Shown here: positions 294-63,374 of the stretch, in pieces
Layout of the letters: the number at the start of each line of letters is the position of its first letter
Numbering within the stretch: the first letter of the stretch is position 1
IMG/VR virus record: IMGVR_UViG_2890901082_000001
Location: 1-64,000 of that record
DNA: 64,000 nt
Reading direction: 5' to 3' (one strand)
From: a virus
Notes under the pieces: model-generated
Told to the model about the DNA's origin: nothing
Databases searched by the model: none
What the model saw: the letters and a program-made list of their open reading frames with translations, nothing else
Program-made: the position numbers and the translations under genes

Positions 294-304
294 AATATTT
301 GTGT
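294..304 (-). promoter_or_regulatory. conserved upstream motif copy (sense ACACAAATATT), 33 nt before start 260
   Basis: aatatttgtgt on the + strand. Confidence 0.45.
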
Positions 305-336
305 AATACAAAGATACAAATATTAGACCTACTACC

Positions 337-984
337 CTAACCATTGTCATCAACATACGATAAATATTCTTCAGCGAAGTTGATTAACTCCTTATATGTG
401 AATTGTTTGTGATTTTCATCGAGTACTGTAAAACTAAAAAAGCTCCTGAAGAAGTTCTCAGCAGTAACCTTTTCGTCAACTAGATTTGTGGAAAACTCCG
501 CATCCTCTAGTCTGGGTGCTTTAATTAAGTCCCAAGCTTCAGTCAGTTCTTTAGTTTCTATAGACCCTTCTAATATCGATTGCTGTAGATCCTCTACTAC
601 TGCATCATCTTTTGAATGTTTTTTTATTTTAGAGAACGATTCTAACTGTGTTGGTGTAGCTACAGTTCTTAAAATATCTTGTGGGTTATCCGACTCTAGT
701 ATATCAAGAAAAGTATTTGTGGCTTTAAATATACGCCAAATGTAGGATTGGGCGATTTCGGTTACATGTGATAGATAAATCACAAATTGAGTAAAGCTAC
801 TAAACCTAGACCCTTCCTCCAGATATAATTTATCCCGCTTCACTATGTACATCATCTCTCCAATTTTTTTCCACGAAGCTTTATCTTTTTTGAGCATAGA
901 GATGATTTGATTTTCTAGGGGTTTTAATCTAGACATATTTAGTAAGGTTATTTTGGTAGTAAAAAGTAGAGTGACCTCGTTCAA
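337..984 (-). CDS. hypothetical protein (215 aa)
   Basis: Long ORF on the dominant strand. No motif recognised. Confidence 0.5.
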   Translation of the reverse strand: MNEVTLLFTTKITLLNMSRLKPLENQIISMLKKDKASWKKIGEMMYIVKRDKLYLEEGSRFSSFTQFVIYLSHVTEIAQSYIWRIFKATNTFLDILESDNPQDILRTVATPTQLESFSKIKKHSKDDAVVEDLQQSILEGSIETKELTEAWDLIKAPRLEDAEFSTNLVDEKVTAENFFRSFFSFTVLDENHKQFTYKELINFAEEYLSYVDDNG

Positions 985-1009
985 TTCATCGATAAGTGGT
1001 ACATAAAGA

Positions 1010-1028
1010 TCACTCTACTTTGTGGAGT
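1010..1028 (+). repeat. 19-nt element TCACTCTACTTTGTGGAGT, an exact inverted copy of 46366-46384
   Basis: Exact match read from the sequence. Also complementary to 964-975 inside the start of CDS 337..984. Confidence 0.6.
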
Positions 1029-1050
1029 ACCCAAGGTACAAAAAAAAGCA

Positions 1051-1539
1051 TTAAGCTGCTACATTTGAAAACTTATTTACCTCCAAGGAACTCGTAAACG
1101 GCTTTATTTTACCCTCTACATAACTTGCTCCAAAGTAAAAGCCAAGGATCAACATAAAAGCTCCCCACATCGCAGCAACAGTTTGCGTTACGAAGCTCTC
1201 CTTCCCTGCAGGAATGTCTACAAAGATTAAAATATAAGTCACGAAAAAGACATTGAATCCAACAAGCAAAGCAAGGTATGCTGCAATATTCTTTGTCAAC
1301 TTCGTTGCTTTATCGGCTTGGTTGATCAGTTCAGTCATTCTTCGTGCTGAATCTCTATCTTGAACTTCATACGAAACAATTTCTGACTCCTGCTCTTTGA
1401 GGGCAATTGCTATCTGTGCTTCTAGCTGTTCTCTATTAAAAGCATCCTGAGCTTTTTCGGCTTTTGTATAAACAAAGGTATCAGCTCCCTTGACTAATGT
1501 CTCAGCAATACCTTTAATCACGTTTAAACCAATAGGCAT
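1051..1539 (-). CDS. membrane protein, N-terminal coiled coil plus two C-terminal TM helices (possible lysis/holin-like role)
   Basis: Hydrophobic stretches IAAYLALLVGFNVFFVTYILIFV and VAAMWGAFMLILGFYFG. The functional guess is positional only. Confidence 0.4.
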   Translation of the reverse strand: MPIGLNVIKGIAETLVKGADTFVYTKAEKAQDAFNREQLEAQIAIALKEQESEIVSYEVQDRDSARRMTELINQADKATKLTKNIAAYLALLVGFNVFFVTYILIFVDIPAGKESFVTQTVAAMWGAFMLILGFYFGASYVEGKIKPFTSSLEVNKFSNVAA

Positions 1540-1603
1540 TTTGACTATAGTTTAAATTAAATATTAGCATAGTAATCTATGCGAGTTTGAGTAGTATTCT
1601 ACT

Positions 1604-1951
1604 TTACGAACTAACTAGGTTTACAAAAGGCATAACCTCTGAAAGTTCAACTCCTTTTTTCATTGCTAGCATCACTACTTCATCTTTAAGCCTACGAAAT
1701 TTTGAAGTAGGTTTTCTATGAGCGATAAAGTCAGTGATTGTTGCTTTTTTAGACTCAAGTTTACCCAAAACATGTACAGCTCCTTCCTGAATTATTAAGG
1801 TGTTGGCTGGAGGAAGTTCAATAAACTCCCCTACTGTTTCTCTTAAAATGAAGTTTCTATTGAATACAGAAATATTCGCAGGGACGTTCAGTTTTGGAAC
1901 ATACACCTCAAGTTCATATTCTGATTCTCTATAAATAGATTTTAGGTACAT
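1604..1951 (-). CDS. hypothetical protein (115 aa)
   Basis: ORF track. Separated by only 2 nt from the upstream fibre-like gene. Confidence 0.45.
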   Translation of the reverse strand: MYLKSIYRESEYELEVYVPKLNVPANISVFNRNFILRETVGEFIELPPANTLIIQEGAVHVLGKLESKKATITDFIAHRKPTSKFRRLKDEVVMLAMKKGVELSEVMPFVNLVSS

Positions 1952-1953
1952 GG

Positions 1954-3603: not shown

Positions 3604-4458
3604 ATGAGTACTAAACATGTAATAGAAAGAATAAAAATAGCTCGTAAAATAAATAAACTTACGCAGAAGCAGATGGCTGAAAAGCTTGGCGTATCAGATA
3701 CTACCTACAAGAAGATCGAGCTGGGGCAACAGAACATTGAAATATCAAGACTTACGAAAATTGCAGATATATTAAACCTAGATTTAACCGAATTATTTGC
3801 TGAAGTCCCTTCTAAAGTAATCACTTTTGTAAACCAAAAAGGTGGTACAGGAAAATCAACTCTAAGTGTGATTACTGCAACAAACCTTAAGGAAAGGCAT
3901 CCTGAAAAACGTATTGCAATCTTAGACTTAGACTTTCAGAGTAGTTCTGAATTTGTTCATAAGATTTCCGAAAATCCCCTGGTAGAGGTTTTTAGAGTAG
4001 ACATTCACGAATCAACCTCTCCTGTCGTTGACTTCTTAAATACATTAAAGAAAGTAAAGAAGGAATGTGAGTACGTGATTATAGATACAGCAGGATCCGT
4101 TGTATTAGCTCAGTTCATCTCAGCGGTACTTTCAGAAACCAATCTAGCAGTCGTTCCTCTTGAGCTGACAGACTTAACCGTTCATGGCACACTGCCAACA
4201 ATCACTCTGATTGAAGATGCAGCTAGTAGAAGAAAAGAGCAGAGTAAGACTTTCAAAGCACTTGCTGTAGCTAATAAAATGAAAGCTAATGTAAGTGAGT
4301 TGAAATACCGTAAAGATTTAAAGCTTGGCGACCATATCGAGATGATGGATGCTTATTTAACATCTAAAGTAACTTATGGTAGAGATCTATCATTAGATCG
4401 AGCATTGACAAATAAGGAAGTGGAGGCATTTATAAACGAAATTGAGAGTTGGGTATGA
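3604..4458 (+). CDS. parA: ParA-family partition ATPase with N-terminal XRE-type HTH domain
   Basis: HTH segment LTQKQMAEKLGVSDTTYKKIELGQQ. Deviant Walker A KGGTGKST in VITFVNQKGGTGKSTLS. ATG at 3604 preferred over the GTG at 3520. Confidence 0.8.
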   Translation: MSTKHVIERIKIARKINKLTQKQMAEKLGVSDTTYKKIELGQQNIEISRLTKIADILNLDLTELFAEVPSKVITFVNQKGGTGKSTLSVITATNLKERHPEKRIAILDLDFQSSSEFVHKISENPLVEVFRVDIHESTSPVVDFLNTLKKVKKECEYVIIDTAGSVVLAQFISAVLSETNLAVVPLELTDLTVHGTLPTITLIEDAASRRKEQSKTFKALAVANKMKANVSELKYRKDLKLGDHIEMMDAYLTSKVTYGRDLSLDRALTNKEVEAFINEIESWV

Positions 4459-5327
4459 AATCTTTAGGAAGATTAGATCGATTAAATAAGATAAAGGAAG
4501 ATAGCTACGAGGAAAGTAGTGAGAAAATAAATGCACAGAAAGAGTTAAATAAACAAGAAGAAGAACTCATGTTAGTGCTTGGGGGAGCTTTCCCTCTGAA
4601 CGTTGAGAAGATAACAATATCTACAGAACTAGAGAAGTACATAAGGCAGCAGAATGAGCTTGAATACATGGATTTTTTCGACTCTGTAAAGGTAGAGGGA
4701 GTTAGGGATCCAATTGTAATTTTCGAGGATCCTGAGTCTGGTGAAACTATCCTTGTTGACGGACATCATAGAGTAAAAGCAGCGAAAGAATTAAACATAA
4801 AATCACTGCTTGCAAAGAAGCTAAATGTAGGGTCATTTTCGGAGGTAAAACTATGGATGCTCAAGAACCAATTAGGTAGAAGAAACCTCACAGATGGGGA
4901 AAGAATTTTCTACGGATTAGAGGTAACTAAGAGTATTGCAGAATTAGCCAAAAAAAAGAAGAAAACCGCGTTTTTGGATACGTCAGTCGTAAGTGCAAAT
5001 TTGCACTTATCGAGAGAAAAGAAAATTGACAGGATGCAAGTAGCAGCAAATTATGCTAATGTTTCAAGAAGACAGACCTTCAAATTCACAAAAATTCTCA
5101 ACTCTGGAAAGGCCGATTTAATTAAGAAAGTAATGGGTGGAAAAGTGTCCATTCACAAGGCGTATTTGGAGGTGACAGAAGAGAATAAAGAGAAGAAAAA
5201 ACCTACAAAAAAAGGACATGAAGAGTTAGATAAAATCACAGAGAAAATATATAACTCAATCAAGCCCTTTTTAAAATCTCATGATCCTAACGAGGTGCTA
5301 GAAAGAATAAAAGATTCTATTGCATAA
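4455..5327 (+). CDS. parB: ParB-like nuclease/partition domain protein
   Basis: ParB N-terminal domain signature DPIVIFEDPESGETILVDGHHRVKAA. ATGA overlap with the parA stop. Confidence 0.7.
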   Translation: MKSLGRLDRLNKIKEDSYEESSEKINAQKELNKQEEELMLVLGGAFPLNVEKITISTELEKYIRQQNELEYMDFFDSVKVEGVRDPIVIFEDPESGETILVDGHHRVKAAKELNIKSLLAKKLNVGSFSEVKLWMLKNQLGRRNLTDGERIFYGLEVTKSIAELAKKKKKTAFLDTSVVSANLHLSREKKIDRMQVAANYANVSRRQTFKFTKILNSGKADLIKKVMGGKVSIHKAYLEVTEENKEKKKPTKKGHEELDKITEKIYNSIKPFLKSHDPNEVLERIKDSIA

Positions 5328-8790: not shown

Positions 8791-9603
8791 TTAAATACTT
8801 AACGCTGTTTTAATGTTCGTTGCCTGTGAAGCATTAAGAACTCCTTCACTCTCTAGAGTATTTACTAAAGAAAGGAAGTCATCTTTTACGAATTTTTTAT
8901 TGACAAGGGAAAGATCTGTGTACTGTGCTGAGTAGTCAGCATCGTATTCTAATCCCTTATTGTTCTGTGCATCTCTAACACGCATAGCAGTTGCGGAAAT
9001 CTCTATGTATTTTGGATCTCCAGAGGCTACTTCTTTGATACCAACATATGCAGTACCCGCACCCCCTGTAATGATGCCTTCGTTTACTCCGTCAGTGGCA
9101 CTTAGCGTAGCACCATTAAACGCATTGGCAATGATCTTTGCAGAGTATCCTAAAAGAAAGCTATCTGTAATTTCAAAACCATAGTCAGAAGAGCCGTCAT
9201 GCTGTGTAGTAAAGTACCCCGAAAACGCTTCCGTAATAAAACCCGCATCATTGGTAAGCTCTGATGTAGATGAAGGAATTGAAGGTTTATCAGTCAAGTC
9301 ATTATAGCTTGAGATACCTGGAGTATCTTTACCTACTTCAGTCCAATTTTCTGTGTTAGTCCACGAATCGTCTGAAAGGTCTGTACCTTCATATCTAAAA
9401 GTTGTGTAGGTATTGTCCGCATTTTTTACCGAAATCAAAACGCCATATCCTCTTTTTTGTAAGGGTATGTTATCTCTCTCAGTAGTACTAAATACAGACT
9501 TGTATCCTCCTTGCACATCCTCCGAACTAATAATTGGATAATCGCTATTTGCGTGTACAAGTTTTTCGGGAAATGGTAATCCACTCATCTTATTCAAACT
9601 CAA
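8791..9603 (-). CDS. tail fibre paralog A (270 aa)
   Basis: N-terminal ~80 aa is homologous to the N-terminus of 9590..10726 (PFPEKLVHANSDYPIISSEDV vs SFPDQLVHSNDNYPIVDSKSV; ERDNIP vs ERDLIP). Confidence 0.5.
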   Translation of the reverse strand: MSLNKMSGLPFPEKLVHANSDYPIISSEDVQGGYKSVFSTTERDNIPLQKRGYGVLISVKNADNTYTTFRYEGTDLSDDSWTNTENWTEVGKDTPGISSYNDLTDKPSIPSSTSELTNDAGFITEAFSGYFTTQHDGSSDYGFEITDSFLLGYSAKIIANAFNGATLSATDGVNEGIITGGAGTAYVGIKEVASGDPKYIEISATAMRVRDAQNNKGLEYDADYSAQYTDLSLVNKKFVKDDFLSLVNTLESEGVLNASQATNIKTALSI

Positions 9604-10726
9604 GTTTAGTCCCTACATTAAATGCCCCAGGAGCATTACTTTTGTATACTCTGTAGCTAGCAGTGACTCCATATGAATTTGTATAATCAAAGTCGCCTAC
9701 TTTAGTAAAAGCTGAGAGTACCGGAGATGACCCGTCTTGAGTGACTTGAGATAAGTCTCCATAACTCGCGGGGTAGATATAATAAGTAAAATGGTCCCCT
9801 GCATCTTCAGTAGCTTGAGTACTATTGATCGTTAAGTTTTTAGAAGTTGCTAGGGATCTTGAAGTAGATATTCTATCAATCACCTCAGTAACTTCCGCAT
9901 TTGTTGGTGATGCAGGAAGTGGGTAGTTTGTACCTCCAAAAAAGCTTCTTTGACGAATGCTAATAGAGAAAGTTCTCGATAAGTTATCTCCACGATCCCC
10001 TATTGCAGTCAATGTCCACGAAATTATCCCTGGAGTTAGGCTCTGAACTTTTGAGCCAACTAATGCTGTAAGTGAACGGTCAACATCATTGATCGGCTGA
10101 CCACTAAAACCTGTACCCACTAGATTAAACGTAGTTGGTTCATTGCCTTCACTATCTACAACTGTAGTCCAAGAAGCAGACTGTACCGTAATTTCTACTC
10201 CAACCTCAAATACACTCCCCGACTCAGCGAAACTTACCTGAAGAGAAGAGAGTGACGGTTTAATGTATGGGGAAATCATTTCTCTAAGGATCGTCTCTAG
10301 TGTTGTGCCTGCAACAAAGGTTCTTCCTTGCGAAATATTTCCTACAGTAAGTGTTGCTGTAAGGTCTGCGGTAAGTTGTGCGTTTTGGATAATGTTTCCA
10401 TCTCCGTCAACGTCTTGTGTGATGTCCTTCCAATTAAGAGCATCTTTCCAATCGGTATCAAGAATGTAATCAGGAAAAACGCCCGGAGCAGTTGGATGTT
10501 CTTTTTTGTCATCCCCCTCATATCGGTATGTTGCAGCGATCACTTTACCTTCCCCATCTTGGGATGCAACCGTAACTACTTGCCCCAATCTTCTTGCGTA
10601 TTGGGGGATTAAATCACGTTCTGCAATAGACCCAACCGTAAAGGATGCCCCTGAAACACTTTTTGAATCTACAATCGGATAATTGTCATTCGAGTGTACA
10701 AGTTGATCTGGAAAACTTAAAGCCAT
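9590..10726 (-). CDS. tail fibre paralog B (378 aa)
   Basis: N-terminal domain shared with 8791..9603. C-terminal YRVYKSNAPGAFNVGTKLEF is shared with 10801..12099. Motif copy 6 nt upstream of the ATG. Confidence 0.5.
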   Translation of the reverse strand: MALSFPDQLVHSNDNYPIVDSKSVSGASFTVGSIAERDLIPQYARRLGQVVTVASQDGEGKVIAATYRYEGDDKKEHPTAPGVFPDYILDTDWKDALNWKDITQDVDGDGNIIQNAQLTADLTATLTVGNISQGRTFVAGTTLETILREMISPYIKPSLSSLQVSFAESGSVFEVGVEITVQSASWTTVVDSEGNEPTTFNLVGTGFSGQPINDVDRSLTALVGSKVQSLTPGIISWTLTAIGDRGDNLSRTFSISIRQRSFFGGTNYPLPASPTNAEVTEVIDRISTSRSLATSKNLTINSTQATEDAGDHFTYYIYPASYGDLSQVTQDGSSPVLSAFTKVGDFDYTNSYGVTASYRVYKSNAPGAFNVGTKLEFE

Positions 10727-10732: not shown

Positions 10733-10750
10733 AATATTTGTGTGTGTGTG
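10733..10750 (-). promoter_or_regulatory. conserved upstream motif copy (sense CACACACACACAAATATT), 6 nt before ATG 10726
   Basis: aatatttgtgtg plus a (tg)n extension, read on the + strand. Confidence 0.6.
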
Positions 10751-10800
10751 ACATGGGGGGTGTCATCTTATTACAAATTAACTTGTAAAAGTGCGGTGCA

Positions 10801-22884: not shown

Positions 22885-22896
22885 TGTATTTGTGTG
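22885..22896 (-). promoter_or_regulatory. conserved upstream motif copy (variant, sense CACACAAATACA), 9 nt before ATG 22875
   Basis: tgtatttgtgtg on the + strand, with 2 mismatches at the A/T end. Confidence 0.5.
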
Positions 22897-33705: not shown

Positions 33706-33717
33706 AATATTTGTGTG
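33706..33717 (-). promoter_or_regulatory. conserved upstream motif copy, 9 nt before ATG 33696 (capsid gene)
   Basis: aatatttgtgtg on the + strand. Confidence 0.6.
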
Positions 33718-34924: not shown

Positions 34925-34936
34925 AATATTTGTGTG
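34925..34936 (-). promoter_or_regulatory. conserved upstream motif copy, 7 nt before ATG 34917
   Basis: aatatttgtgtg on the + strand. Confidence 0.6.
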
Positions 34937-36957: not shown

Positions 36958-36969
36958 AATATTTGTGTG
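36958..36969 (-). promoter_or_regulatory. conserved upstream motif copy, 7 nt before ATG 36950 (portal)
   Basis: aatatttgtgtg on the + strand. Confidence 0.6.
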
Positions 36970-40833: not shown

Positions 40834-40845
40834 AATATTTGTGTG
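40834..40845 (-). promoter_or_regulatory. conserved upstream motif copy, 21 nt before ATG 40812 (terL)
   Basis: aatatttgtgtg on the + strand. Confidence 0.6.
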
Positions 40846-42811: not shown

Positions 42812-42823
42812 TACACAAATATT
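42812..42823 (+). promoter_or_regulatory. single inverted (plus-sense) copy of the conserved motif, TACACAAATATT
   Basis: This is the only copy oriented toward the + strand. No convincing ORF follows it. Confidence 0.45.
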
Positions 42824-44974: not shown

Positions 44975-44986
44975 AATATTTGTGTG
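44975..44986 (-). promoter_or_regulatory. conserved upstream motif copy, 14 nt before ATG 44960
   Basis: aatatttgtgtg on the + strand, preceded by ttaagtttaa. Confidence 0.6.
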
Positions 44987-46276: not shown

Positions 46277-46288
46277 AATATTTGTGTG
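46277..46288 (-). promoter_or_regulatory. conserved upstream motif copy, 20 nt before ATG 46256
   Basis: aatatttgtgtg on the + strand. Confidence 0.6.
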
Positions 46289-46357
46289 TTTCTATATATG
46301 TAAATGTAAGGGTCAATTTTTCACGTTGGTATGCCTAGGAAAACTCTGTAGAAGAAC

Positions 46358-49617: not shown

Positions 49618-49629
49618 AATATTTGTGTG
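49618..49629 (-). promoter_or_regulatory. conserved upstream motif copy, 10 nt before ATG 49607
   Basis: aatatttgtgtg on the + strand, preceded by ttaagtttaa. Confidence 0.6.
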
Positions 49630-53091: not shown

Positions 53092-53402
53092 TATGATGCG
53101 TATAAAAAAATGAATGAAATGTCACCTTCTTTAGTGACCCTAATTTTGACTACATTTTCAAGGGGTAATTGCATAGAATCTTGAGTAGAAGTATATGCCC
53201 CCACATATCCATTCCCACCATCAACTTCAACTGTAGCTCCGTTGATGTTTGATAAGAGAACAGACTTAGCCCCTGTGCAATCCAACTCAACACCTCCATT
53301 CGCTGCTGTTGGAGAATTAATGCTGTTTTCATCACTCAACTTTGGTGTTAGTGATTTCACCTGAAAGGATTTGCTGTAGAATGTTTGTGTACCTGCTTCC
53401 AT
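53091..53402 (-). CDS. hypothetical protein (103 aa)
   Basis: ORF track. 1-nt overlap with the downstream gene. Confidence 0.45.
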   Translation of the reverse strand: MEAGTQTFYSKSFQVKSLTPKLSDENSINSPTAANGGVELDCTGAKSVLLSNINGATVEVDGGNGYVGAYTSTQDSMQLPLENVVKIRVTKEGDISFIFLYAS

Positions 53403-54173
53403 CTATTTGTTACGTTTTATTCTTTTTCTTTTTATAACTTCTTTAGGAGGATCCTTTTCCTCTGTAGTAATTTCTTCATGCGGAATTTCTTCTATTGATT
53501 CCGCTTTTTCGGGTAGTTCCTCCTCAGTCTTTTTACCAAAAAACGAAGCCAAAATACCGCCTGCAGGTTTCGAGGTTTCATCTTTGGAGGTACTGCTTGC
53601 CTGTATCGTCAGTGTTTGTCTATTCTGACCCATACGATCCGCTAAGTCAGCAAGCTTTGCCATACGATCAATTTCACCTGATAGTATCATGTCCGTTTTA
53701 CCTCCATCGGTTTTCTCTGCTGCACTTTCAACTGCAATCCTCTTGGACTGTATATCAATAAGTTCTTTTATGATCTCTTTTGGTGAAAGTTCTTTCATGC
53801 TCTCACTTTCCCAGTCGAAGGCACATTCTGACGACTCCTCAAAATATGGGCAAGAGGTATTCATGTAGCATTTCACACAACTAATCCCGATTTCTTTGGC
53901 GGGAATTTTTTTGGTCCTCTTTACAGGAGCATCCCAAGTAGCACTCCATTCGAGCTGAGGTCTTGCCGATATTTTAAGAAGAAATTCCTTTTTACACTTA
54001 GACATGATGCTTGGATCACTACATCCTTCGCACTTGTCTTCATCTCCGAATTCTTCTAGCCTATTCTTCATGAAGCAGTTGCATATTATGTTTTTATGCA
54101 TCAACTCCGAGTAGTGCATTGAGAGAGCTTTTACCCACTCTTCTACCTGTTCTTTTGTTTCTTTTGTAATCAT
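53403..54173 (-). CDS. Cys-rich hypothetical protein (256 aa) with acidic/basic C-terminal tail
   Basis: Nine Cys residues, including CNC, CEGC and CVKCYMNTSCP...C. No family recognised. Confidence 0.5.
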   Translation of the reverse strand: MITKETKEQVEEWVKALSMHYSELMHKNIICNCFMKNRLEEFGDEDKCEGCSDPSIMSKCKKEFLLKISARPQLEWSATWDAPVKRTKKIPAKEIGISCVKCYMNTSCPYFEESSECAFDWESESMKELSPKEIIKELIDIQSKRIAVESAAEKTDGGKTDMILSGEIDRMAKLADLADRMGQNRQTLTIQASSTSKDETSKPAGGILASFFGKKTEEELPEKAESIEEIPHEEITTEEKDPPKEVIKRKRIKRNK

Positions 54174-54353: not shown

Positions 54354-55379
54354 TTAGGTTTTCCAATGACTCCAAACTGTTCCCAGCTCTTTGTTTTTTA
54401 TTCTAGCTCTCTTAGTCACCTGCTCTCTAAACGTCAGCCAACTTTGTGCGCCATAAATATTATTATGATATGCATTCCTTCCTTTTACCAATGTTTTGAG
54501 ATCCATCGTTCCATTGCCCCAATTTTTTAGTTTATGCTTTTCTCTTTTTCTATAGTGTTTCATGTCGGGGTCAAGCCTTATAAAGTTTGTTCCATCCGCA
54601 TGAAAGCTAACTCCCATCTGATCGGCCATTAGCCAAGATGAAGAATCCGCTGCAAAAGTTGGGAGATCAAAAGAAGGAAGTGTTTCCGTGTACCCAAACA
54701 GATGAATTGGTACATTGTATATTTTTTGAATTTGGTGTATCTGAGGAAGTAACTTTGTAATAGACATCCCAGAAGCAACTCCAACATAGTCGAAACTTCT
54801 AGCATACTCTTCAAGCCTTTTTAACCCATACCTATCTCCATGTATGCCTAAAGTATCCGCATGGGCTATAAAACAAACATTAACCACCTTCGAAAGTGGT
54901 CTAAAGTATTTCTCGTTCCATTCATCCACCACTTCTCTCCCCACATATCCGTCTAAGTCCATATTTGCAACAACATAAAGACATTCTGCATGATCGTAAC
55001 ACCACTGCACATACTCCTCAATGTATCCAATCCAAAAATTGGGATCATACCATTCCTCTTTCGCTTCATCTTGGTTAAAGAATGAGAATGCCCCTGAATC
55101 CGTCATAAACAGATTTTTCTTTGTTTCATCCTTCTTAAAGTCTGAGAATAATATTTCTGTAAAACCTTCTAGATTTTTTTTGATGTAATGGTAAGACACT
55201 AAGACTTCATGTATCCCACAACTCCACAGTTGATGAATACGCTGAATATTCGTAGATACAAAAAAGGTGACCCTATGTTCTACACATGGATCATAGATAA
55301 ACTCTTTGGATTTATTTGAGCGAATCTTTCTTTCCTTTGCTACTATTTGTCTAGTGCTTTTTCGTACTCTTCCTGCCAT
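54354..55379 (-). CDS. dpdA: DpdA-like DNA-guanine transglycosylase (TGT superfamily)
   Basis: LFMTDSGAFSFF matches the DpdA/TGT catalytic Asp motif. Size fits. Adjacent to queC. Confidence 0.7.
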   Translation of the reverse strand: MAGRVRKSTRQIVAKERKIRSNKSKEFIYDPCVEHRVTFFVSTNIQRIHQLWSCGIHEVLVSYHYIKKNLEGFTEILFSDFKKDETKKNLFMTDSGAFSFFNQDEAKEEWYDPNFWIGYIEEYVQWCYDHAECLYVVANMDLDGYVGREVVDEWNEKYFRPLSKVVNVCFIAHADTLGIHGDRYGLKRLEEYARSFDYVGVASGMSITKLLPQIHQIQKIYNVPIHLFGYTETLPSFDLPTFAADSSSWLMADQMGVSFHADGTNFIRLDPDMKHYRKREKHKLKNWGNGTMDLKTLVKGRNAYHNNIYGAQSWLTFREQVTKRARIKNKELGTVWSHWKT

Positions 55380-56077
55380 TGATCAAAAAGTGAGAAAGTT
55401 GACATATACTCAAGTTGGTCCTTATATAAGGCTTCAATATGAGGTTTTACATCTTGATCGAAACAATCAATCCCTATATCATTATTAGCAAGTGCTACTG
55501 CTTTTCTTACACAGGCAGAACACTTACCACACCCCTTATCTGTAGTAGGGGCATAACAAGAAATGAGTTCAGAAATTTCTTTTTCTGTAACCACATTTTC
55601 CTCAAGACATAGGTTTAATGCTTCAGACTTGGACAAGTCCTTATGCGGGGAAATAACTTCGGGGGAGAACCCTTTCCAGTTTTCGGGTTTAGGTACATTG
55701 TAATAATATACCTTCATAAAGTTCTCTACAGCTTTGAGAATATCTTCGTTAGTGTCCCTAAAAAAGTCAAATACTGTAGTTCCAACAAAAACTTTTGGAG
55801 CATGCTCAAAAGCCTTGAGGAAAAAATAAATATTGCGAAGAGGAACATAATGGTTTGCCTCAGACTCCATCCTAAATGTATCATTGATCTTAAGATCTTC
55901 ATTAGGGGCGTATATCTGATTACGTACTTGTTCCTGTTCTCTTTTTGAATAATCTACACCTACATTGAAGTGTAAAAGCGTGAGTGGTTCTAGTGATTCC
56001 CTTAATCGCTTTCTAAGCAAAAAAGAGTCAAAGCCTCCTGAATACAGAAGTACTTTAGGTTCATATTTGTGTGACAT
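55343..56077 (-). CDS. queC: 7-cyano-7-deazaguanine (preQ0) synthase
   Basis: PP-loop VLLYSGGFDSF, then PLRN, and the C-terminal Zn-Cys cluster SCY...GCGKCSACVRK. Confidence 0.8.
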   Translation of the reverse strand: MSHKYEPKVLLYSGGFDSFLLRKRLRESLEPLTLLHFNVGVDYSKREQEQVRNQIYAPNEDLKINDTFRMESEANHYVPLRNIYFFLKAFEHAPKVFVGTTVFDFFRDTNEDILKAVENFMKVYYYNVPKPENWKGFSPEVISPHKDLSKSEALNLCLEENVVTEKEISELISCYAPTTDKGCGKCSACVRKAVALANNDIGIDCFDQDVKPHIEALYKDQLEYMSTFSLFDQWQEEYEKALDK

Positions 56078-56313: not shown

Positions 56314-56601
56314 TTAGAGGGCAGAAGTAGCTTGGATTAAACCAATTCGTTCTTTAAGCACCTTAGTACTAATTGCTACCTTTCCGTCTGAGACATTTGT
56401 GAAAGAGTGATTATAACTAAGCTTAACGCCTTTTGTATAAAATCTACCACTGGCCTCGATTACGGCTTTTATTTTTTGATTAAGCGCTCCTGCTCCTACG
56501 GAGACGAGGTTTACGCTTTCCTGCTGTCGAAGACCTTGCTCTATCGACTTTGCGAGCCTTTGTACGTTCGTCTGTGTTGATACTTTGATGATGTTTTGCA
56601 T
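56314..56601 (-). CDS. SpoVS-like (Alba-fold related) nucleic-acid-binding protein
   Basis: IIKVSTQTNVQRLAKSIEQGLRQQESVNLVSVGAGALNQKIKAVIEASGRF aligns by eye with Bacillus SpoVS (ILKVSAKS...IQAIGAGALNQAVKA). Start taken at MQNIIKV. Confidence 0.7.
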   Translation of the reverse strand: MQNIIKVSTQTNVQRLAKSIEQGLRQQESVNLVSVGAGALNQKIKAVIEASGRFYTKGVKLSYNHSFTNVSDGKVAISTKVLKERIGLIQATSAL

Positions 56602-57076
56602 AGTGCATTTTTTCCTTTGTGTATAGTGCAATCAGTAATGCATCGCTCGTTTTCAAAGTTACCTTCAGATTTGTAAAGAACGAAATCGCCAAGGATTTTA
56701 ATCTGTTTTTATATTTTGTTGTTGATTCAGTCTTACCCTTTTTGAGTTTAAAATGCTTCATCCAAGTAGCGGGTGTTTCAAAAATAACCCGTGCAAAAAG
56801 AGTATAAGCAATCAAACTCATTATACCTTTATTTTCACCAAAAGAGAACGCCTGCTTACTTCCATCGCGGGGCATCGAATGTACATTCTCCATGATACAA
56901 ATATATTGCCCTCTTTCTAAGCGAGAATTTTCTTGAAAATCCTTTATAAATGCATATGCCTCTACTGCAGTCGTTGGGTTGGGATAAACTACCACCTCGT
57001 CATGATATATAATAGCCATCGCCCCACTCTTTCCAGGGTCAATTCCAACGAAAGCAATTTCCTCATTTTGTAACAT
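56480..57076 (-). CDS. RuvC-like Holliday junction resolvase
   Basis: Start at MLQNEEIAFVGIDPGKSG (motif copy 8 nt upstream). Catalytic-type residues GIDPG, IMENV and SDALLIA. The basic C-terminal tail overlaps the SpoVS-like gene by 122 nt. Confidence 0.65.
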   Translation of the reverse strand: MLQNEEIAFVGIDPGKSGAMAIIYHDEVVVYPNPTTAVEAYAFIKDFQENSRLERGQYICIMENVHSMPRDGSKQAFSFGENKGIMSLIAYTLFARVIFETPATWMKHFKLKKGKTESTTKYKNRLKSLAISFFTNLKVTLKTSDALLIALYTKEKMHYAKHHQSINTDERTKARKVDRARSSTAGKRKPRLRRSRSA

Positions 57077-57084
57077 AAGATCTA

Positions 57085-57096
57085 AATATTTGTGTG
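57085..57096 (-). promoter_or_regulatory. conserved upstream motif copy, 8 nt before ATG 57076
   Basis: aatatttgtgtg on the + strand. Confidence 0.6.
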
Positions 57097-57253
57097 TATT
57101 TCTACTTTTTAAAATCGCTTTTATTTGCTTTGTATTTCTTCTCACATCGCATTTAAAATATAGTTAGATATATTTTCATTACTTAAGTTGTAAGTGACGT
57201 TACAAGGCAAAATATAAAGGAATAGCGGATTGAGGTATGCCGACCCTATCACA

Positions 57254-57649
57254 CTACTTTTTTACTTCTTTTAGGTTATTAAACCAATAAGAAAAATCTT
57301 GCATAGAGTTCACCTGCAGCAATACATACTCAGGACATACCCTATTTAAAAAGGCTGAAGCTAAACGAACATCAATAAGAGCATTACCATATCCCCCTGT
57401 TTTCTTGTCCAAAGAAACGGATTTGGCTCCCGCTCTCTCCAACTCTCCAATAGAAAGGAATCCATTTTTCTTCCTTACTCTCTTAAAGATGTTCTCTAGA
57501 TTTTCTCTAGTACTCTTTGATGACCTATTTTTCCTCTCAATAGCCAAAAAAAGATTCATAGTTTCCTTCAATCGGAACCATGAATTGAAAGAGGCTTTAG
57601 AGGCGTTTGACACCTCTAAAACTTCAACTAATCTAATTTTTTTAAACAT
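57254..57649 (-). CDS. hypothetical protein (131 aa)
   Basis: Start taken at MFKKIRLVEV, giving an 8-nt overlap with the upstream gene. Confidence 0.4.
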   Translation of the reverse strand: MFKKIRLVEVLEVSNASKASFNSWFRLKETMNLFLAIERKNRSSKSTRENLENIFKRVRKKNGFLSIGELERAGAKSVSLDKKTGGYGNALIDVRLASAFLNRVCPEYVLLQVNSMQDFSYWFNNLKEVKK

Positions 57650-58073
57650 TATTTCTTCTTCGGGTAATTTCCCTTGAAAGTACTTCAAAGGAGTGGAGGA
57701 TTGAGCTATGCTTATCCTTCAACATTTCATATAAAATTTGAGTTTGGAGGAGTTCTCCCTTAAGCCCACTAACTACGGGGTCTGAATCCGCTGAAGCTTC
57801 TTTTTCTTTTACAGACTTCCCTTTCGCTAATATGATCAACGAAGCTCTTTTGGTATTATAATTATGCTCCTCTGACTGCAGTGCTGCCCTTGTCATAATC
57901 AATTGTGATTCGACAAATTCACGCCAAGCGTTATAGTTGCCTAACATGGAACCCATCTCGTCAGCAGAGAGTTCGTTTAAATCGGCAGGAAGGTGGGTAA
58001 ACTCCCCTTCCGGTTTCGCTCTTTGAGTCGTTCCTAACAACTTCTTAAACCTGTTTACTGCTTCGGTTTTCAT
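57642..58073 (-). CDS. hypothetical protein (143 aa)
   Basis: ORF track. Motif copy 8 nt upstream. Confidence 0.45.
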   Translation of the reverse strand: MKTEAVNRFKKLLGTTQRAKPEGEFTHLPADLNELSADEMGSMLGNYNAWREFVESQLIMTRAALQSEEHNYNTKRASLIILAKGKSVKEKEASADSDPVVSGLKGELLQTQILYEMLKDKHSSILHSFEVLSREITRRRNNV

Positions 58074-58081: not shown

Positions 58082-58093
58082 AATATTTGTGTG
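58082..58093 (-). promoter_or_regulatory. conserved upstream motif copy, 8 nt before ATG 58073
   Basis: aatatttgtgtg on the + strand. Confidence 0.6.
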
Positions 58094-58911: not shown

Positions 58912-61026
58912 CTAATAGGTATTCAATTTCTTAGAGACTTCTTTAGTAAAGAATCTAATAAAGCTTTTGTAGAAGTCCCCAGACGAAAAATCTAAAAACT
59001 TACCATTTCCATACAGATAATTTGCAGCTCTAACAGGCCCAATTAAGACAGGAATAAAGGGTATCCCTTCTTTTCTTATCTTATCAACGGAAAGCTTTAA
59101 TGCCTTCTCAGCATCTTCCGTTTTTAATTTACCTTCCAGTTGAACGGATACATCCGTGGGTTCCCCGTCACTGATTAGAATTAGAATAAAGTTCTGTCCA
59201 AATTCCTCCTCCATCAGCTTTTTGGTTTTAATCAGTGCATCCGCATCTGCATTTGATCCTTCGGGGTCTAGTTGAGGAATTTTTTTGAGAGTTTTTGTAC
59301 CTCTAGTATAAAGCTCTCTCAATGTCGCTCCTCCAGAAACATGATAAGACTCTGCGGTATCATGCGCCCAAACACGAACTTCCATTTTTGGAACGGACTG
59401 TGCAGCCTTCGTAATACAAAGTGCTACTTCTTTTGCTACATCAGATCGGGTTCTTCCTCCTGGTTCTTCTAGTTTCATACTTCCACTATTGTCTACAAGG
59501 ATTCCAACACCAACTACTCCCGTCTCTACGACTTCTTTTTGCATGTAGATAGAAGAAACTCCCGCCTTTACTTCTGCAATTTTTGAGCGATCCATTTTTC
59601 CCGTTCTTTGAGAATTACGAACATACTCCCTCGTTTCTGCTACAGCGTTTAATCTTCTAGAAAGGAATTGAGCATCTCCTCTAACTTCTGCAATAGCTCT
59701 GTTATACTGTCTATTGTCACATTCTTTACCCTCTACAACTACAACACCATCAATAGTTGAGTACTCCTTAAATGTGATATGTATGTGTTGTTTTTGCTCT
59801 TTAGGTTTTTCTGCATTATCTCCGCCTGTAGGTGAAGGAGATCCGCCTAGAGTTTCAACAATATCTTTGATATTCTCTGATTTATCCACTACATTTTCGA
59901 AACTATCCCCGTTTCCGGAGGTATCTCCTTCAGGTTTTGAATCTGAGTCTTTGTCACTGTCTCCCCCCTCGCCATCTTTTGAGTCTTCTGTTTCATCGCT
60001 ATCCCCACTTCTATCTTTCTCTGTCTGAGATTCGCTGTCCCCTTCTCTATCGCTCTCTTCTTCGGGATTTTTTGAAGGTTTACTTTTTTTACCCTTGTCA
60101 GACACTTTTTTGTTACCGCTACTATTAGAAGAGTCAGAAGAAGCATCTCCCTCTGATTCTGAGGAGTCGCTGCTAGATTCATTATTTAAGTCTGAGGAAT
60201 CCTCAAACTTTGACTTAATCCAATCAAAGGTTTTCCTTGAGTACTCGCAAACTTCTTCAAAGGTTTCGGGAAGTTTACCTTCTACGATTTTTTCAAATTC
60301 TTTGATTTCTGTTGCAAGTTCCTTCTCCATGATCGGGAGGATTCTTGAGGGATACCTTACCGAAAGGAATACAAAGTTTATAAGTTTTTCAAGAGGGCTT
60401 GACTCTCTATACTTATCCTTACACTTAGCATCATATCTGCCAAAGTAGTGTTCTTTTAACTTCTCGATGAACAAGTGGGTCCCAGGGTTTTCTTCTGTCA
60501 TGATCCTTTCTATTCGTTCATCTTCAAAAATGTTTCGAAGATTCTGCTCCAAAGGATGCCTTGGCTTTGTCTTCTCTTTACCAATAGGAGTATAAAGACA
60601 GTGCGATGCTTCGTGAACGGTTAGTCCTAAAAATATATCTTGTAAGCCATCTACGAATAACCTTTTACTCGATTCTTTTGAGGGAGGTGATTCTAACGAA
60701 CCTGTTCCAACCTGAATAGTGCTGCCGTCCGTAAAGGAATTATTCGAAAATTGATTTACAACAAGATTGGCCCTTACACCTAAAGAGCATAGTAAGGCTC
60801 TTGCCTTATCTTCCATTACGTTGACGAATAAATTCTCTTCCTTAGTATTTCGAACTTTCGAGTCTGAGGCAAATCGTTCTTTTACCCTTCTATATTTAAC
60901 CGAGTTTTCTATAAGGTATGTAGAAAACGAGTCATGTCTATACTTTGAAGCCCATGCAGATACATACCCTTCTTGCTTATGCGTGAAGGAAGTTTCCTTT
61001 TCGCTTCTGTTGAAAATATCTCTCAT
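58912..61026 (-). CDS. VWA-domain protein with N-terminal HExxH metallopeptidase-like domain and acidic central linker
   Basis: HEASH in LTVHEASHCLY. MIDAS motif ILVDNSGSM. Central D/E/S-rich low-complexity region. Confidence 0.7.
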   Translation of the reverse strand: MRDIFNRSEKETSFTHKQEGYVSAWASKYRHDSFSTYLIENSVKYRRVKERFASDSKVRNTKEENLFVNVMEDKARALLCSLGVRANLVVNQFSNNSFTDGSTIQVGTGSLESPPSKESSKRLFVDGLQDIFLGLTVHEASHCLYTPIGKEKTKPRHPLEQNLRNIFEDERIERIMTEENPGTHLFIEKLKEHYFGRYDAKCKDKYRESSPLEKLINFVFLSVRYPSRILPIMEKELATEIKEFEKIVEGKLPETFEEVCEYSRKTFDWIKSKFEDSSDLNNESSSDSSESEGDASSDSSNSSGNKKVSDKGKKSKPSKNPEEESDREGDSESQTEKDRSGDSDETEDSKDGEGGDSDKDSDSKPEGDTSGNGDSFENVVDKSENIKDIVETLGGSPSPTGGDNAEKPKEQKQHIHITFKEYSTIDGVVVVEGKECDNRQYNRAIAEVRGDAQFLSRRLNAVAETREYVRNSQRTGKMDRSKIAEVKAGVSSIYMQKEVVETGVVGVGILVDNSGSMKLEEPGGRTRSDVAKEVALCITKAAQSVPKMEVRVWAHDTAESYHVSGGATLRELYTRGTKTLKKIPQLDPEGSNADADALIKTKKLMEEEFGQNFILILISDGEPTDVSVQLEGKLKTEDAEKALKLSVDKIRKEGIPFIPVLIGPVRAANYLYGNGKFLDFSSGDFYKSFIRFFTKEVSKKLNTY

Positions 61027-61028
61027 AA

Positions 61029-62348
61029 TTATGCTTTAAGTAGAAAAGTAGATCTTATTTGATCCTGTTCACCACCATCTCCTTTTTCAAAAAGAGGTAA
61101 TACAACGGACTCTAACGACTCAATTAATGGAAACCCATCAGCAACCATTTCTGCAACCTGTTCGCTGTATCGAATAGATACAAAGGTTGATATACTATCA
61201 CTTTGGTATAAGTCTCTTATTGCCTCAAATACACTCGCAATTTTTTGAGCTTCTTTTTCCTCTAGTGAAGGATATTTAGACATGAGGATTTTTTGTTCAA
61301 TATCAGACTTGACATATTCTACCTCAAACAGTCGGAATCTATCAAGCAATGCTCGATCTATTTTATGTGTCCCTGAATAGTCTGCACCCAAGTTAGCTGT
61401 TGCAATAAATACTTTATCTGATACATCAATTTCTCCTGCATCTTCACCAAAAGCCGTATCCAGCTTCATAACTCCCGTTCCATCAAGTACAGGAAATAGA
61501 ATGTTATTTGCCCCAGATGGCGCTCTACTAATTTCGTCTAGCAGTATTCCTTTTACATTAGGATCTTTTAGAGCCTTAACAAAAGGTGAATACTCAAATA
61601 CTGACTCTCCATCTTTTATGATATGATTACCAATCAACCCAGAGATAGCATCTTGCATGGCTCCCATGTTGATGTATGCATACTCCATGTTTAGTTTTTC
61701 AAGAAGTAGTTTGGCTAACACCGTCTTTCCTGTTCCGGTATGTCCAACCAAGAGAGAATTTGCCTTTCTAGAAAAAGAGTGCACTAACCTCTTTTGTAAG
61801 AATTCATCTGCATAGTATTTATCATCCTCTACAGTGATCTTTTTAAATGCACTCCATTTCCTTTCTATGAATGTCTTTTTCTTTAGCTTTCTTCTAAAGG
61901 TATCTTTTACCTGCTTTTCAAGGGATTTATCTTTTAAGATTTCCTCATAAAACACAGATCTTGCATAAGATAATTTATCGGGGCCTTCTTTATCATACTC
62001 CAAATTCTTTGGGCTGTTTTTTACAAGGTAAAGTACCCCGCAGTAGTGTGATCCATCATTAGTAGATCCATCCTGCGTACTATGAAGGGTGGCTAAGAAA
62101 ATAGCTTTTTCGTTTTTCTTCAAAAAATTTTCATCCTCAAATGCTGCTGTAAACTCTAGGTTTTTCTGAACGTCTCCTTCAAAATAAACTACGCGAGTTT
62201 GGTTTTTTGGGACGATATGTTCTCCTGCTTTTACATTTACGATAGTGGTAGCAACACCTCCAAAGTTGCACTGCACAGCTTCATCACGCATTGCAGTAAA
62301 CGCCCCTGTATCCGTAGAAAAGGATACCGTTGAAAATTCTTGATTCAT
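61029..62348 (-). CDS. MoxR/CobS-like AAA+ ATPase
   Basis: Walker A VGHTGTGKTV and Walker B ILLDEISR. Directly upstream of the VWA partner. Confidence 0.75.
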   Translation of the reverse strand: MNQEFSTVSFSTDTGAFTAMRDEAVQCNFGGVATTIVNVKAGEHIVPKNQTRVVYFEGDVQKNLEFTAAFEDENFLKKNEKAIFLATLHSTQDGSTNDGSHYCGVLYLVKNSPKNLEYDKEGPDKLSYARSVFYEEILKDKSLEKQVKDTFRRKLKKKTFIERKWSAFKKITVEDDKYYADEFLQKRLVHSFSRKANSLLVGHTGTGKTVLAKLLLEKLNMEYAYINMGAMQDAISGLIGNHIIKDGESVFEYSPFVKALKDPNVKGILLDEISRAPSGANNILFPVLDGTGVMKLDTAFGEDAGEIDVSDKVFIATANLGADYSGTHKIDRALLDRFRLFEVEYVKSDIEQKILMSKYPSLEEKEAQKIASVFEAIRDLYQSDSISTFVSIRYSEQVAEMVADGFPLIESLESVVLPLFEKGDGGEQDQIRSTFLLKA

Positions 62349-62358: not shown

Positions 62359-62368
62359 AATATTTGTG
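62359..62368 (-). promoter_or_regulatory. conserved upstream motif copy (shorter, sense CACAAATATT), 10 nt before ATG 62348
   Basis: aatatttgtg on the + strand. Confidence 0.5.
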
Positions 62369-62412
62369 ATTATATACTAGATTATAAAAAAGCTATCGAA
62401 GACAAGCATGCC

Positions 62413-62757
62413 TTATTTATCTCCGATTGATTGCCTAAAAAATTCTCTAACGTGTTTAGTTTCCAACACAGTTAGCTCTAAATCAAACTCCTCAAAGTAC
62501 ACGATCATTGCAGGTACTTGTCCTAGCTTCGTGCGTTTTTTGCACTTTAAAAAAGTATCCGCCTTAAGCGTGTAGCTTTTCTTGGAAGTAGTTTTAGCCT
62601 CTACAGAAACCATTTCGTTCTCTACATCATTTTCTGCGAAGGCTGCCCCAGAAGCGATAGTTTCTTTTGCCTTAAGCTGCTCTGCAAGTCTCTTCTCTTG
62701 TTTTCGAGATCGGCTAACCGTAGTTTCCCTAGGCTTGTTCATCCATTTTGGCCTCAT
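62413..62757 (-). CDS. small putative PD-(D/E)XK-type nuclease (114 aa)
   Basis: SGAAFAENDVENEMVSVEAKTT resembles a D...E-x-K core. Weak. Confidence 0.35.
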   Translation of the reverse strand: MRPKWMNKPRETTVSRSRKQEKRLAEQLKAKETIASGAAFAENDVENEMVSVEAKTTSKKSYTLKADTFLKCKKRTKLGQVPAMIVYFEEFDLELTVLETKHVREFFRQSIGDK

Positions 62758-62780
62758 AAGTCTTCAAGTTTTTGAGCATT

Positions 62781-62846
62781 AAAAAGACACTCCTATTGTA
62801 TATGGGATCACATATACTTAGCCCCATGCCGAACAGTGTGTCTTTT
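62781..62846. terminator. compound hairpin / bidirectional terminator
   Basis: AAAAAGACAC (62781-62790) pairs with GTGTCTTTTT (62837-62846). Inner stem GTATATG / CATATAC. Confidence 0.5.
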
Positions 62847-62851
62847 TGATT

Positions 62852-63001
62852 TTATTTATTTAACTGCTGTAGTTTACCTAACTCAGTATTGTATTTATTA
62901 AGTACAATATCCTTTGAAGGCATTTCTTTTATAGAATGTTTTTTTACATCCTCAATAAGCATCTTTAAGTATGCTATTTCTTTTTCAATTGCTGCTTTCA
63001 T
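62852..63001 (-). CDS. hypothetical protein (49 aa)
   Basis: Start at MKAAIEKEI gives an ATGA overlap with the upstream gene. Confidence 0.35.
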   Translation of the reverse strand: MKAAIEKEIAYLKMLIEDVKKHSIKEMPSKDIVLNKYNTELGKLQQLNK

Positions 63002-63348
63002 GACCTTACTCCTTCGTATGTAACACCAATACACGCATGCTTGGAAGCTACTTCGTCAATAACCTCCATGACATCTTCCTTATAAGTTTTTGGTAGGATC
63101 AGTACTGCAAGATCAATTGCATCGTCAAGCTCCTCCTTACGAACTTTTGTGTATAAAAAAGTCTCTTTATTCTTCTTAAGGAAATTCTCTATATCCTCGT
63201 AAGAACGTTTGTTAATTTCTTTTCCTTCTTCCACTAGCAAAAAATTGGCTTCAAAGCCCTTATCTTTTACTACCGCTTTTGCTACAGTATAAATGTCGAA
63301 TACGTCTAACAGTTTTCCTGTTAGGTTTGAGACAATGACGTTTTTCAT
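62998..63348 (-). CDS. hypothetical protein (116 aa)
   Basis: ORF track. Motif copy 14 nt upstream. Confidence 0.45.
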   Translation of the reverse strand: MKNVIVSNLTGKLLDVFDIYTVAKAVVKDKGFEANFLLVEEGKEINKRSYEDIENFLKKNKETFLYTKVRKEELDDAIDLAVLILPKTYKEDVMEVIDEVASKHACIGVTYEGVRS

Positions 63349-63362
63349 ATAAGTTTAATATT

Positions 63363-63374
63363 AATATTTGTGTG
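63363..63374 (-). promoter_or_regulatory. conserved upstream motif copy, 14 nt before ATG 63348
   Basis: aatatttgtgtg on the + strand. Confidence 0.6.

Follow-up and report, generated by a model that had tools for sequence, protein, structure and literature searches.

The window analysed here comprises 64,000 nt of a viral genome (IMG/VR record IMGVR_UViG_2890901082_000001, positions 1 to 64,000), and its subject element is a 12-nt motif found just upstream of 14 start codons, at the heads of structural as well as DNA-metabolism gene blocks. Since all family-supported open reading frames (ORFs), including those for the capsid, the portal and the terminase TerL, lie on the minus strand, the motif reads CACACAAATATT in gene sense and AATATTTGTGTG on the plus strand. 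An NCBI protein of Flammeovirga agarivorans, encoded on a 95,901-bp contig, matches the capsid protein with 100% identity, and another protein of the window carries a Flammeovirga sp. SR4 locus tag. Amid the tailed-phage structural genes, the plus strand encodes ParA (N-terminal helix-turn-helix, HTH, plus ATPase; 3604-4458) and ParB (4455-5327), so that the genome is probably that of a phage-plasmid (plasmid-prophage) of a marine Bacteroidota host. Bacteroides phage BS162P1, MT835482 and a number of metagenomic contigs are its nearest relatives, with about 50% capsid identity and a gene order largely collinear with the window. No ParA or ParB homologue was found in BS162P1 or MT835482, and no close relative was recovered by megablast against phages or tblastn against plasmids.

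The 12-nt tag is real. Exact AATATTTGTGTG occurs 11 times on the plus strand of the window and never on the minus strand, while about 0.01 exact copies are expected from base composition (our own estimate). The full set of 14 is completed by one copy with a single mismatch (294) and two copies with two mismatches (22885 and 62359), and all 14 positions at which a previous, sequence-only reading of this DNA had placed the motif carry it on the plus strand. The 10-nt core AATATTTGTG is present 13 times on the plus strand and once on the opposite one. That reading had also proposed counting the motif and its reverse complement against a shuffled control; in the window this revealed a strong excess, with 28 matches at up to two mismatches compared to 9.97 +/- 3.44 in dinucleotide shuffles, and 0 of 100 shuffles reached 28. 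An alignment of the 14 sites reveals a 12-nt block with sharp edges (1.2-2.5 bits per column) and, behind it, four less conserved columns, W W A A, the last two of which (columns 15-16) are A in 11/14 and 10/14 sites; upstream of the motif no column is conserved, and none is -35- or -33-like. With the resulting 16-column position weight matrix all 14 sites score at least 16.7 bits, in gene sense and in intergenic DNA, and are cleanly separated from the rest. The next scores belong to a reverse-oriented, likewise intergenic copy at 42812-42823 (15.8 bits) and to a degenerate copy within the queC gene (13.1 bits), and anything lower is background. The statement that every copy has the same orientation is therefore valid for the 14, but it had overlooked these two. 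Once the motif is masked, enrichment among intergenic words is limited to T-runs and to AAACTTA, a word of leaders.

Two minor observations concern individual copies. Extra CA repeats (gtCACACACACACACAAATATT, 10745-10752) precede the copy at 10733, as if the CA part had been expanded by slippage, and a second degenerate gene-sense copy (53376-53391; codons 4-8 of 53091-53402) scores 10.4 bits, which is background level. Several readings of the repeat could be discarded. Recent segmental duplication is out, the flanks sharing only the four weakly conserved downstream columns; parS/centromere, Chi-like and DpdA-target readings are out, with copies exclusively start-proximal and intergenic; an operator for a dimeric repressor is out, CACAC having no symmetric partner; and pairing with the anti-Shine-Dalgarno (anti-SD) sequence is out in the absence of any G in the motif.

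The motif ends 6-10 nt before the start codon in nine sites, 14-21 nt in four and 33 nt in one (Table 1). The sequence-only reading had every copy preceding an ATG; this stands for the 13 copies at 6-21 nt, while the 33-nt case precedes a GTG. In gaps of at least 60 nt (n=10), 9 copies lie in the start-proximal quarter (binomial ~3e-5, by our own arithmetic), and combining all 14 sites by Fisher's method yields p = 0.02. The proximity thus persists in long gaps and is a property of the motif rather than a by-product of small gaps. Two gene starts proposed on the strength of the motif, at 46256 and 57076, are supported, the motif lying inside the longer mechanical ORFs 45099-46316 and 56480-57145; for a third proposed start, at 47679, a gene caller prefers the same ATG. 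Regarding the genes served, capsid, portal and terL are confirmed by PHROGs, whereas the names tube, tail fibre and scaffold derive from gene order alone, with no family match. Ahead of the capsid, portal and 143-aa genes the arrangement is a 25-27-nt gap made of stop codon, 5-7 nt, motif, 7-9 nt and ATG, with no terminator. Three other copies stand 62-71 nt past strong intrinsic terminators, among them the one predicted before the 34925 copy, and one stands 13 nt past an 11-bp hairpin; other terminators are not followed by the motif. Genes following a tagged gene mostly overlap or are at most 7 nt apart. Altogether, the tag marks the first cistrons of tightly coupled blocks in both the structural and the DNA-metabolism modules.

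Table 1. Copies of the 12-nt motif and associated features in the window
Feature	Position	Strand	Context
Copy TACACAAATATT, 1 mismatch	294..305	-	33 nt upstream of GTG of ORF 51-260
Perfect sigma-A -7 box TATCTTTG			3 nt upstream of the 294 copy
Reverse-oriented partial copy, 2 mismatches	313..324	+	inverted repeat (9-bp arms) with the 294 copy
Exact copy	10733..10744	-	6 nt upstream of ATG of 378-aa tail-region gene 9590-10726
Variant CACACAAATACA	22885..22896	-	9 nt upstream of ATG of 22366-22875, the gene after a sheath-like gene
11-bp hairpin			ends 13 nt upstream of the 22885 copy
Exact copy	33706..33717	-	in 26-nt gap, 9 nt upstream of major capsid protein ATG
Exact copy	34925..34936	-	7 nt upstream of 70-aa gene heading the head-assembly block
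Terminator	35027-34999		62 nt before the 34925 copy
Exact copy	36958..36969	-	in 25-nt gap, 7 nt upstream of portal ATG
Exact copy	40834..40845	-	21 nt upstream of terL ATG
Perfect -7 box TATATTTG			45 nt further upstream of the 40834 copy
Reverse-oriented copy TACACAAATATT, 1 mismatch, 15.8 bits; the only strong one	42812..42823	+	not beside a start codon
Exact copy	44975..44986	-	14 nt upstream of 79-aa gene, then RadC
Terminator	45082-45049		62 nt before the 44975 copy
Exact copy	46277..46288	-	20 nt upstream of ATG at 46256, 385-aa ORFan
Terminator	46388-46360		71 nt before the 46277 copy
Exact copy	49618..49629	-	10 nt upstream of 161-aa gene with weak integrase-N-terminal SAM-like matches
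Degenerate copy CACACAAATATG	56062..56073	-	codons 2-5 of QueC, begins 4 nt after ATG
Exact copy	57085..57096	-	8 nt upstream of ATG at 57076, Holliday-junction resolvase-like
Exact copy	58082..58093	-	in 27-nt gap, 8 nt upstream of 143-aa gene conserved in relatives
Variant ATCACAAATATT	62359..62370	-	10 nt upstream of AAA ATPase gene
Exact copy	63363..63374	-	14 nt upstream of 116-aa gene

In order to see how far the motif extends beyond this phage, related genomes and larger collections were searched. The search of related phage genomes, which the sequence-only reading had suggested, recovered no copy in the relatives, and recounting the core in all fetched loci gave single chance matches only. 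Scanning IMG/VR with each of two 16-mers gave 52 and 29 single matches, with no contig matched twice or common to both. In genome contigs the exact motif gave single chance matches, and no Flammeovirga record was among the matches listed. A full-text literature search for the motif found only unrelated eukaryotic primers and sequences, and Rfam at gathering thresholds had no match over the window. By these sequence matches, the motif is private to this phage among the viruses searched; as judged from viral sequences, the factor recognising it would therefore be more likely phage-encoded than a general component of the host.

The Bacteroidota promoters that have been studied carry TAnnTTTG at -12 to -5, with six nearly invariant bases (T-12, A-11, T-8, T-7, T-6 and G-5) and 4-5 nt to the transcription start site (TSS) (PMC6847099). 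The motif resembles such sigma-A promoters in occupying, at the head block and the AAA ATPase, the same genomic places as promoters of related phages, and in the -7-like character of its reverse complement: as had been noticed, only the complement resembles the box, AATATTTG fitting 5 of the 6 invariant positions. It differs in that the gene-sense strand has no TTTG, that T-12 is missing in either reading and in all copies, and that it lies too close to the ATG. This last point, already made by the sequence-only reading, is supported by the geometry of the -7 box and by leader lengths in the phylum, where leader length has its mode at 23 nt and very short or leaderless transcripts make up less than 4-6% (87% exceed 10 nt in Flavobacterium johnsoniae, and 3.7% are below 10 nt in Bacteroides thetaiotaomicron; PMC6847099, PMC7366714), compared to 6-10 nt between motif and start codon in 9/14 sites. 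On this comparison of sequences, the motif is not the -7 box of the host sigma-A.

Canonical boxes are also scarce in the rest of the window. Sense intergenic DNA contains 25 of them in BS162P1 (shuffles 5.1 +/- 2.2) and 14 in MT835482 (2.3 +/- 1.5), and the over-represented gene-sense 10-mers of the relatives, CTATATTTGT and TATATTTGTA, correspond to the canonical box; the window has 4 compared to 2.8 +/- 1.6 in shuffles, i.e. no enrichment. Perfect -7 boxes precede the motif at terL and at 294, the TSS predicted at 294 falling on the first bases of the motif, and 5/6 boxes were recognised (our own reading) in five further long gaps. Altogether 7/10 long gaps have a perfect or 5/6 box compared to ~4/10 by chance, which is not significant. 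In four relatives, a perfect canonical promoter stands 49-52 nt before the ATG of the small gene heading the head block; the corresponding position in this phage holds only CAGCTTTG, and the motif is located 7 nt from the ATG. A low-confidence alignment with the relatives presents the motif as an insertion in the leader of this gene. Likewise, the MT835482 orthologue of the AAA ATPase gene has a canonical promoter at the site of the motif. About half of the genes located behind a terminator lack both the motif and a canonical box. Enrichment was also seen for AAACTTA(A/T), a leader word present 8-17 nt ahead of starts in 10 intergenic regions, with or without the 12-nt motif (e.g. in the leaders of 41534-42709, 43612-43998, 44721-44960, 49122-49607, 49650-50066, 57642-58073 and 62998-63348); ACTTAAA is also found in leaders of BS162P1, MT835482 and L212, and the word may be a feature of the translation-initiation region (TIR) in this phage group.

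We tentatively favour, while giving it less than an even chance, that the motif is a transcribed, unpaired and G-free leader element, which lies in the ribosome-binding window of block-first genes and is read by a phage-specific factor. It would be part of the 5' leader or of the intercistronic RNA of each block's first cistron, inside or at the edge of the region covered by the 30S subunit (-7 to -33 for 13 copies, +4 to +15 for the one in QueC). Shine-Dalgarno (SD) pairing is not used by Bacteroidota ribosomes, which favour unpaired A's around -11 to -14; where the spacing is tightest (6-8 nt), the motif's AAA would fall in or next to this stretch. A single sequence-specific partner, either a protein or a complementary RNA and private to the phage, would read all tags and either enhance or block initiation jointly at every tagged first cistron. 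Genes that abut closely downstream would be carried along through translational coupling and polarity, and the plasmid-prophage would thereby gain one switch for its lytic gene blocks.

Several features are consistent with such a leader element. Having no G, the motif should be single-stranded, and the predicted unpaired fraction of its RNA is 0.74, compared to 0.58 for equivalent positions in other genes (p = 0.003). The near-exact conservation over 12 nt calls for one sequence-specific reader. At terL and 294, the perfect sigma-A box upstream would place the motif within the transcript, and the distance from its 5' end to the ATG, 18-34 nt in 13 copies (median ~21; 45 nt at 294), is in the normal range of leaders. 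The QueC copy lies in the first five codons, where a promoter could not act on the gene but a factor bound to the TIR could. Start proximity itself favours a leader element, and so do the very short leaders (~0-7 nt in 9/14 genes, the capsid gene included) that a promoter would force. Three roles had been put forward by the sequence-only reading, namely a phage-specific promoter, an RNA processing site and a CA-rich, unstructured translation enhancer. None is refuted, and the promoter and the role in translation come out as the top two; the generic enhancer is insufficient, since it does not explain base-perfect conservation of 12 nt, and a sequence-specific reader must be added. The weighting of these roles is changed by the plasmid-prophage context, the reverse copy and the absence of canonical host promoters.

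Other observations speak against it. Without sigma-A box enrichment in the window, most blocks would have no recognised promoter if the motif is not one. In the three spacers of 62-71 nt that follow strong terminators, the motif is the only common element, and the canonical head-block promoter present in four relatives and missing here fits promoter replacement too. Reading 12 nt of unstructured RNA needs a factor, and none was found in the proteins scanned, which comprise ~40 of the 91 called ORFs (nearly all of those in 41-64 kb and some 20 elsewhere; many are ORFans, and the window covers 64 of the 95.9 kb of the contig). Candidate reader proteins of 391 and 128 aa, encoded in a sigma-A-driven operon, have no match in PDB or among families, and single-sequence AlphaFold modelling of the 391-aa protein reaches a pLDDT of 35. 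High accessibility follows almost automatically from a G-free sequence, and chance could account for each of the two additional copies, the one in QueC and the reverse one (~0.02-0.3 depending on the counting method). Finally, transcription at every site, the action on translation and the existence of a trans-acting factor are all inferred.

The motif could instead be the core of a phage-specific promoter, recognised by a phage sigma-like factor or RNA polymerase or by an alternative sigma of the host; we regard this as somewhat unlikely in absolute terms, although it is nearly equal in likelihood to the leader signal. Transcription would start a few nucleotides downstream, perhaps at the conserved A's 3-4 nt past the motif (columns 15-16), leaving very short leaders, and the tagged blocks could stay silent in the plasmid-prophage until the factor is made. 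Besides T-runs and AAACTTA the motif is the only recurrent intergenic motif, no other promoter signal was identified, and TAnnTTTG boxes are unenriched here while strongly enriched in the relatives, whose canonical promoters at the head block and the AAA ATPase coincide with motif sites; at the head block, the canonical promoter is lost exactly where the motif appears. There are three clean units of terminator, 62-71 nt, motif, gene(s) and terminator, to which the hairpin before the 22885 copy can be added. Sharp borders and exact conservation are typical of phage polymerase or sigma promoters such as the T7-type and T4 late ones. The motif, which is private to its phage, shares these over its 12 bp and, like promoters of the T7 group or the T4 late promoter TATAAATA read by gp55, is short, in one orientation, intergenic, at block heads, in some copies behind terminators and different from the host consensus; by our own comparison, its core CACAAATA equals TATAAATA with two T-to-C changes. 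It differs in being nearer to the start codon than usual and in that Pfam, PHROGs and NCBIfam searches of the scanned proteins revealed no cognate RNA polymerase or sigma factor. Leaders of ~0-7 nt in 9/14 genes would moreover be atypical for Bacteroidota translation, the DNA upstream of the motif shows no conservation, there would be no purpose for the non-conserved spacers of 62-71 nt behind terminators, and the QueC copy is downstream of its ATG. The argument that a promoter is needed after a terminator is itself weak, since about half of the post-terminator genes have neither motif nor canonical box.

An asymmetric 12-bp DNA operator, bound by a monomer of the prophage repressor or of another phage regulator and blocking initiation or elongation from a place between promoter and first gene, is unlikely. 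The models are the stoperators of phage L5 and the dispersed asymmetric C1 operators of the phage-plasmid P1. These are asymmetric 13-17-bp sites in many copies throughout a temperate genome, oriented with transcription and located in short intergenic spaces; the L5 features (asymmetric, many copies, one orientation relative to transcription, one opposite copy) are reported by Brown et al. in 1997, and PMC3203893 contrasts stoperators with the start-associated sequences discussed below. The motif is likewise asymmetric, multi-copy and oriented with transcription apart from one opposite copy, and P1 shares the plasmid-prophage lifestyle. A phage-plasmid with an HTH-bearing ParA and a ParB, residing in a bacterial isolate assembly, would need genome-wide silencing of its lytic blocks; perfect or 5/6 -7 boxes stand upstream of several copies, and one small tagged protein has weak similarity to the DNA-binding N-terminal part of integrases. 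L5 and P1 sites, in contrast, are not positioned by start codons, and their repressors are known, while none was identified here in the proteins scanned. A roadblock need not hug the start codon, yet 9/10 long-gap copies do, there are few recognisable promoters to repress, and the copies in 25-27-nt gaps sit within operons.

We consider it very unlikely that the motif is an RNA processing site, at which an endoribonuclease, either sequence-specific or AU-preferring, would cut to generate leaders of normal length. The distance from the 5' end of the motif to the ATG in 13 copies is indeed close to the modal Bacteroidota leader, several copies lie inside polycistronic junctions and the RNA is predicted to be single-stranded. 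RNase E-type enzymes prefer RN|WUU, which AAAU/AUU in the motif fits, and there are two ACA triplets. A specificity of 12 nt would however be unprecedented, as we know of no bacterial or phage endoribonuclease requiring 12 specific bases; short degenerate cleavage motifs would not keep 12 positions invariant, and no nuclease candidate was found in the proteins scanned.

The reverse copy at 42812-42823 raises the possibility, which we rate lower again, that the 14 tags are targets of one antisense sequence. The gene strand there reads AATATTTGTGTA, complementary to the motif, and could form 11-13 bp with TT-class sites. It lies downstream of a perfect sigma-A box, TATATTTG, near 44190, itself after a terminator (44249-44221), and the complementary 12-mer may be co-transcribed with that sigma-A operon. 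Pairing in the 30S window would shut translation of the block-first genes, and coupling and polarity would silence whole lytic blocks. The c4 RNA of P1/P7 and the CI RNA of P4 are comparable in having short identical targets at ribosome-binding regions and a complement encoded once, in a regulatory region of a plasmid-prophage; control in these systems reportedly spreads by coupling and polarity (Biere et al. 1992). They have 2 targets compared to 14 here, however, and around the complementary copy no discrete small RNA, processing signal or clear terminator was detected, only a weak local hairpin. A reverse copy with one mismatch somewhere in 64 kb is also not very improbable. If true, the model would represent a genome-wide RNA-based immunity of a Bacteroidota phage-plasmid, in a phylum without SD pairing or Hfq. 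The surrounding region (42710-43611) has ~900 nt without a credible ORF, with an AT-rich trough of 23-24% GC, 20-nt inverted repeats and ATAGTATAT direct repeats; after the trough, ~500 nt show extreme GC skew (-0.5 to -0.6, plus strand C-rich), and the gene-strand RNA would have several GGAGG-like runs. There is no Rfam match in 42710-43611, which could be a plasmid origin, an immunity region or a non-coding RNA. The two proteins encoded downstream of the sigma-A box near 44190, at 41534-42709 and 43612-43998, are ORFans in collections of 5.8 billion and 1.8 billion proteins, and NCBI calls them with shorter starts (382 and 93 aa).

Least probable of all are antisense sigma-A-type promoters, with AATATTTG on the plus strand firing away from the gene and acting through antisense RNA or a polymerase over the gene start: the 5/6 match to the -7 box, the ATATTTGT that the motif shares with the relatives' over-represented box, and the reverse copies at 42812 and 313, which place the box in gene sense upstream of genes, are outweighed by the missing T-12, the absence of a -33 or AT-rich upstream pattern on the plus strand, an invariant GTGTG without a role in a -7 box, the unexplained start proximity, an RNA that would miss the adjacent start region, and a chance of ~0.08 (our own estimate) that a random 12-mer matches 5/6 in some register.

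The closest described phenomenon, if we judge by architecture and not by family membership, appears to be the start-associated sequence (SAS) of cluster K mycobacteriophages, reported by Pope et al. 2011: 13 nt, 11-19 copies, 3-7 nt from mostly ATG starts, and one lone reverse copy (PMC3203893). As of 2025 its function had still not been tested (PMC12699233). The SAS and the present motif are short and asymmetric (13 and 12 nt), similar in number of copies (11-19 and 14), almost always intergenic, in one orientation, near overwhelmingly ATG starts, private to a phage group and accompanied by a lone reverse copy. The differences are that the SAS has an AGGAG SD core while this motif has no G and no GGAG-like core, in a host phylum without SD pairing; that the spacing is 3-7 nt compared to 6-21 nt here; that the SAS occurs only in the non-structural arm, while the present motif stands at the head of capsid, portal, terL and tail blocks as well; and that there are no ESAS-like inverted repeats with this motif and no sequence similarity. 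By this analogy, the tag could conceivably be a Bacteroidota counterpart of the unexplained cluster K sequences, a reading to which we attach the same guarded credence as to the leader element.

Other features of the window and its relatives were recorded. A 7-deazaguanine DNA-modification set (37776-38417, 52329-52856, 53403-54173, 54354-55379 and 55343-56077) comprises GTP cyclohydrolase I (FolE), QueD/PTPS, QueC and a DpdA-like homologue of queuine tRNA-ribosyltransferase that is divided between two ORFs; DpdA, QueC and QueD homologues are present in the relatives too. Thymidylate synthase is encoded at 36976-37776. The region 58912-62348 encodes the AAA ATPase (MoxR/CobS-like matches), then a 704-aa protein with a long acidic Ser/Asp-rich linker and a C-terminal von Willebrand A domain, a pair conserved in BS162P1 and MT835482. 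TerL has ~905 aa in BS162P1 (L058, 9334-12057) and MT835482 (L060, 11123-13840) compared to 553 aa here and 549-553 aa in L211-L213; the ~905-aa proteins align in two separate pieces, which suggests an intein or an inserted domain. In a related contig (L213, 17850-19046) a reverse-transcriptase (RVT_1) gene adjoins tail genes and may be part of a diversity-generating retroelement.

Mycobacteriophage start-associated repeats, known since 2011, still lack an explanation, and because the SAS overlaps an SD core its effect is inseparable from ordinary ribosome binding. The motif described here shows the same architecture in a phylum that ignores SD sequences; it is G-free and perfectly conserved, and it separates the question of the tag from that of SD pairing. 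If it were a promoter, it would represent a non-sigma-A transcription specificity in a Bacteroidota phage, with near-leaderless mRNAs. Either outcome would provide a handle on the lytic switch of a marine Bacteroidota plasmid-prophage, and the motif could serve as a small orthogonal signal for gene expression in a phylum whose genetic tools are few.

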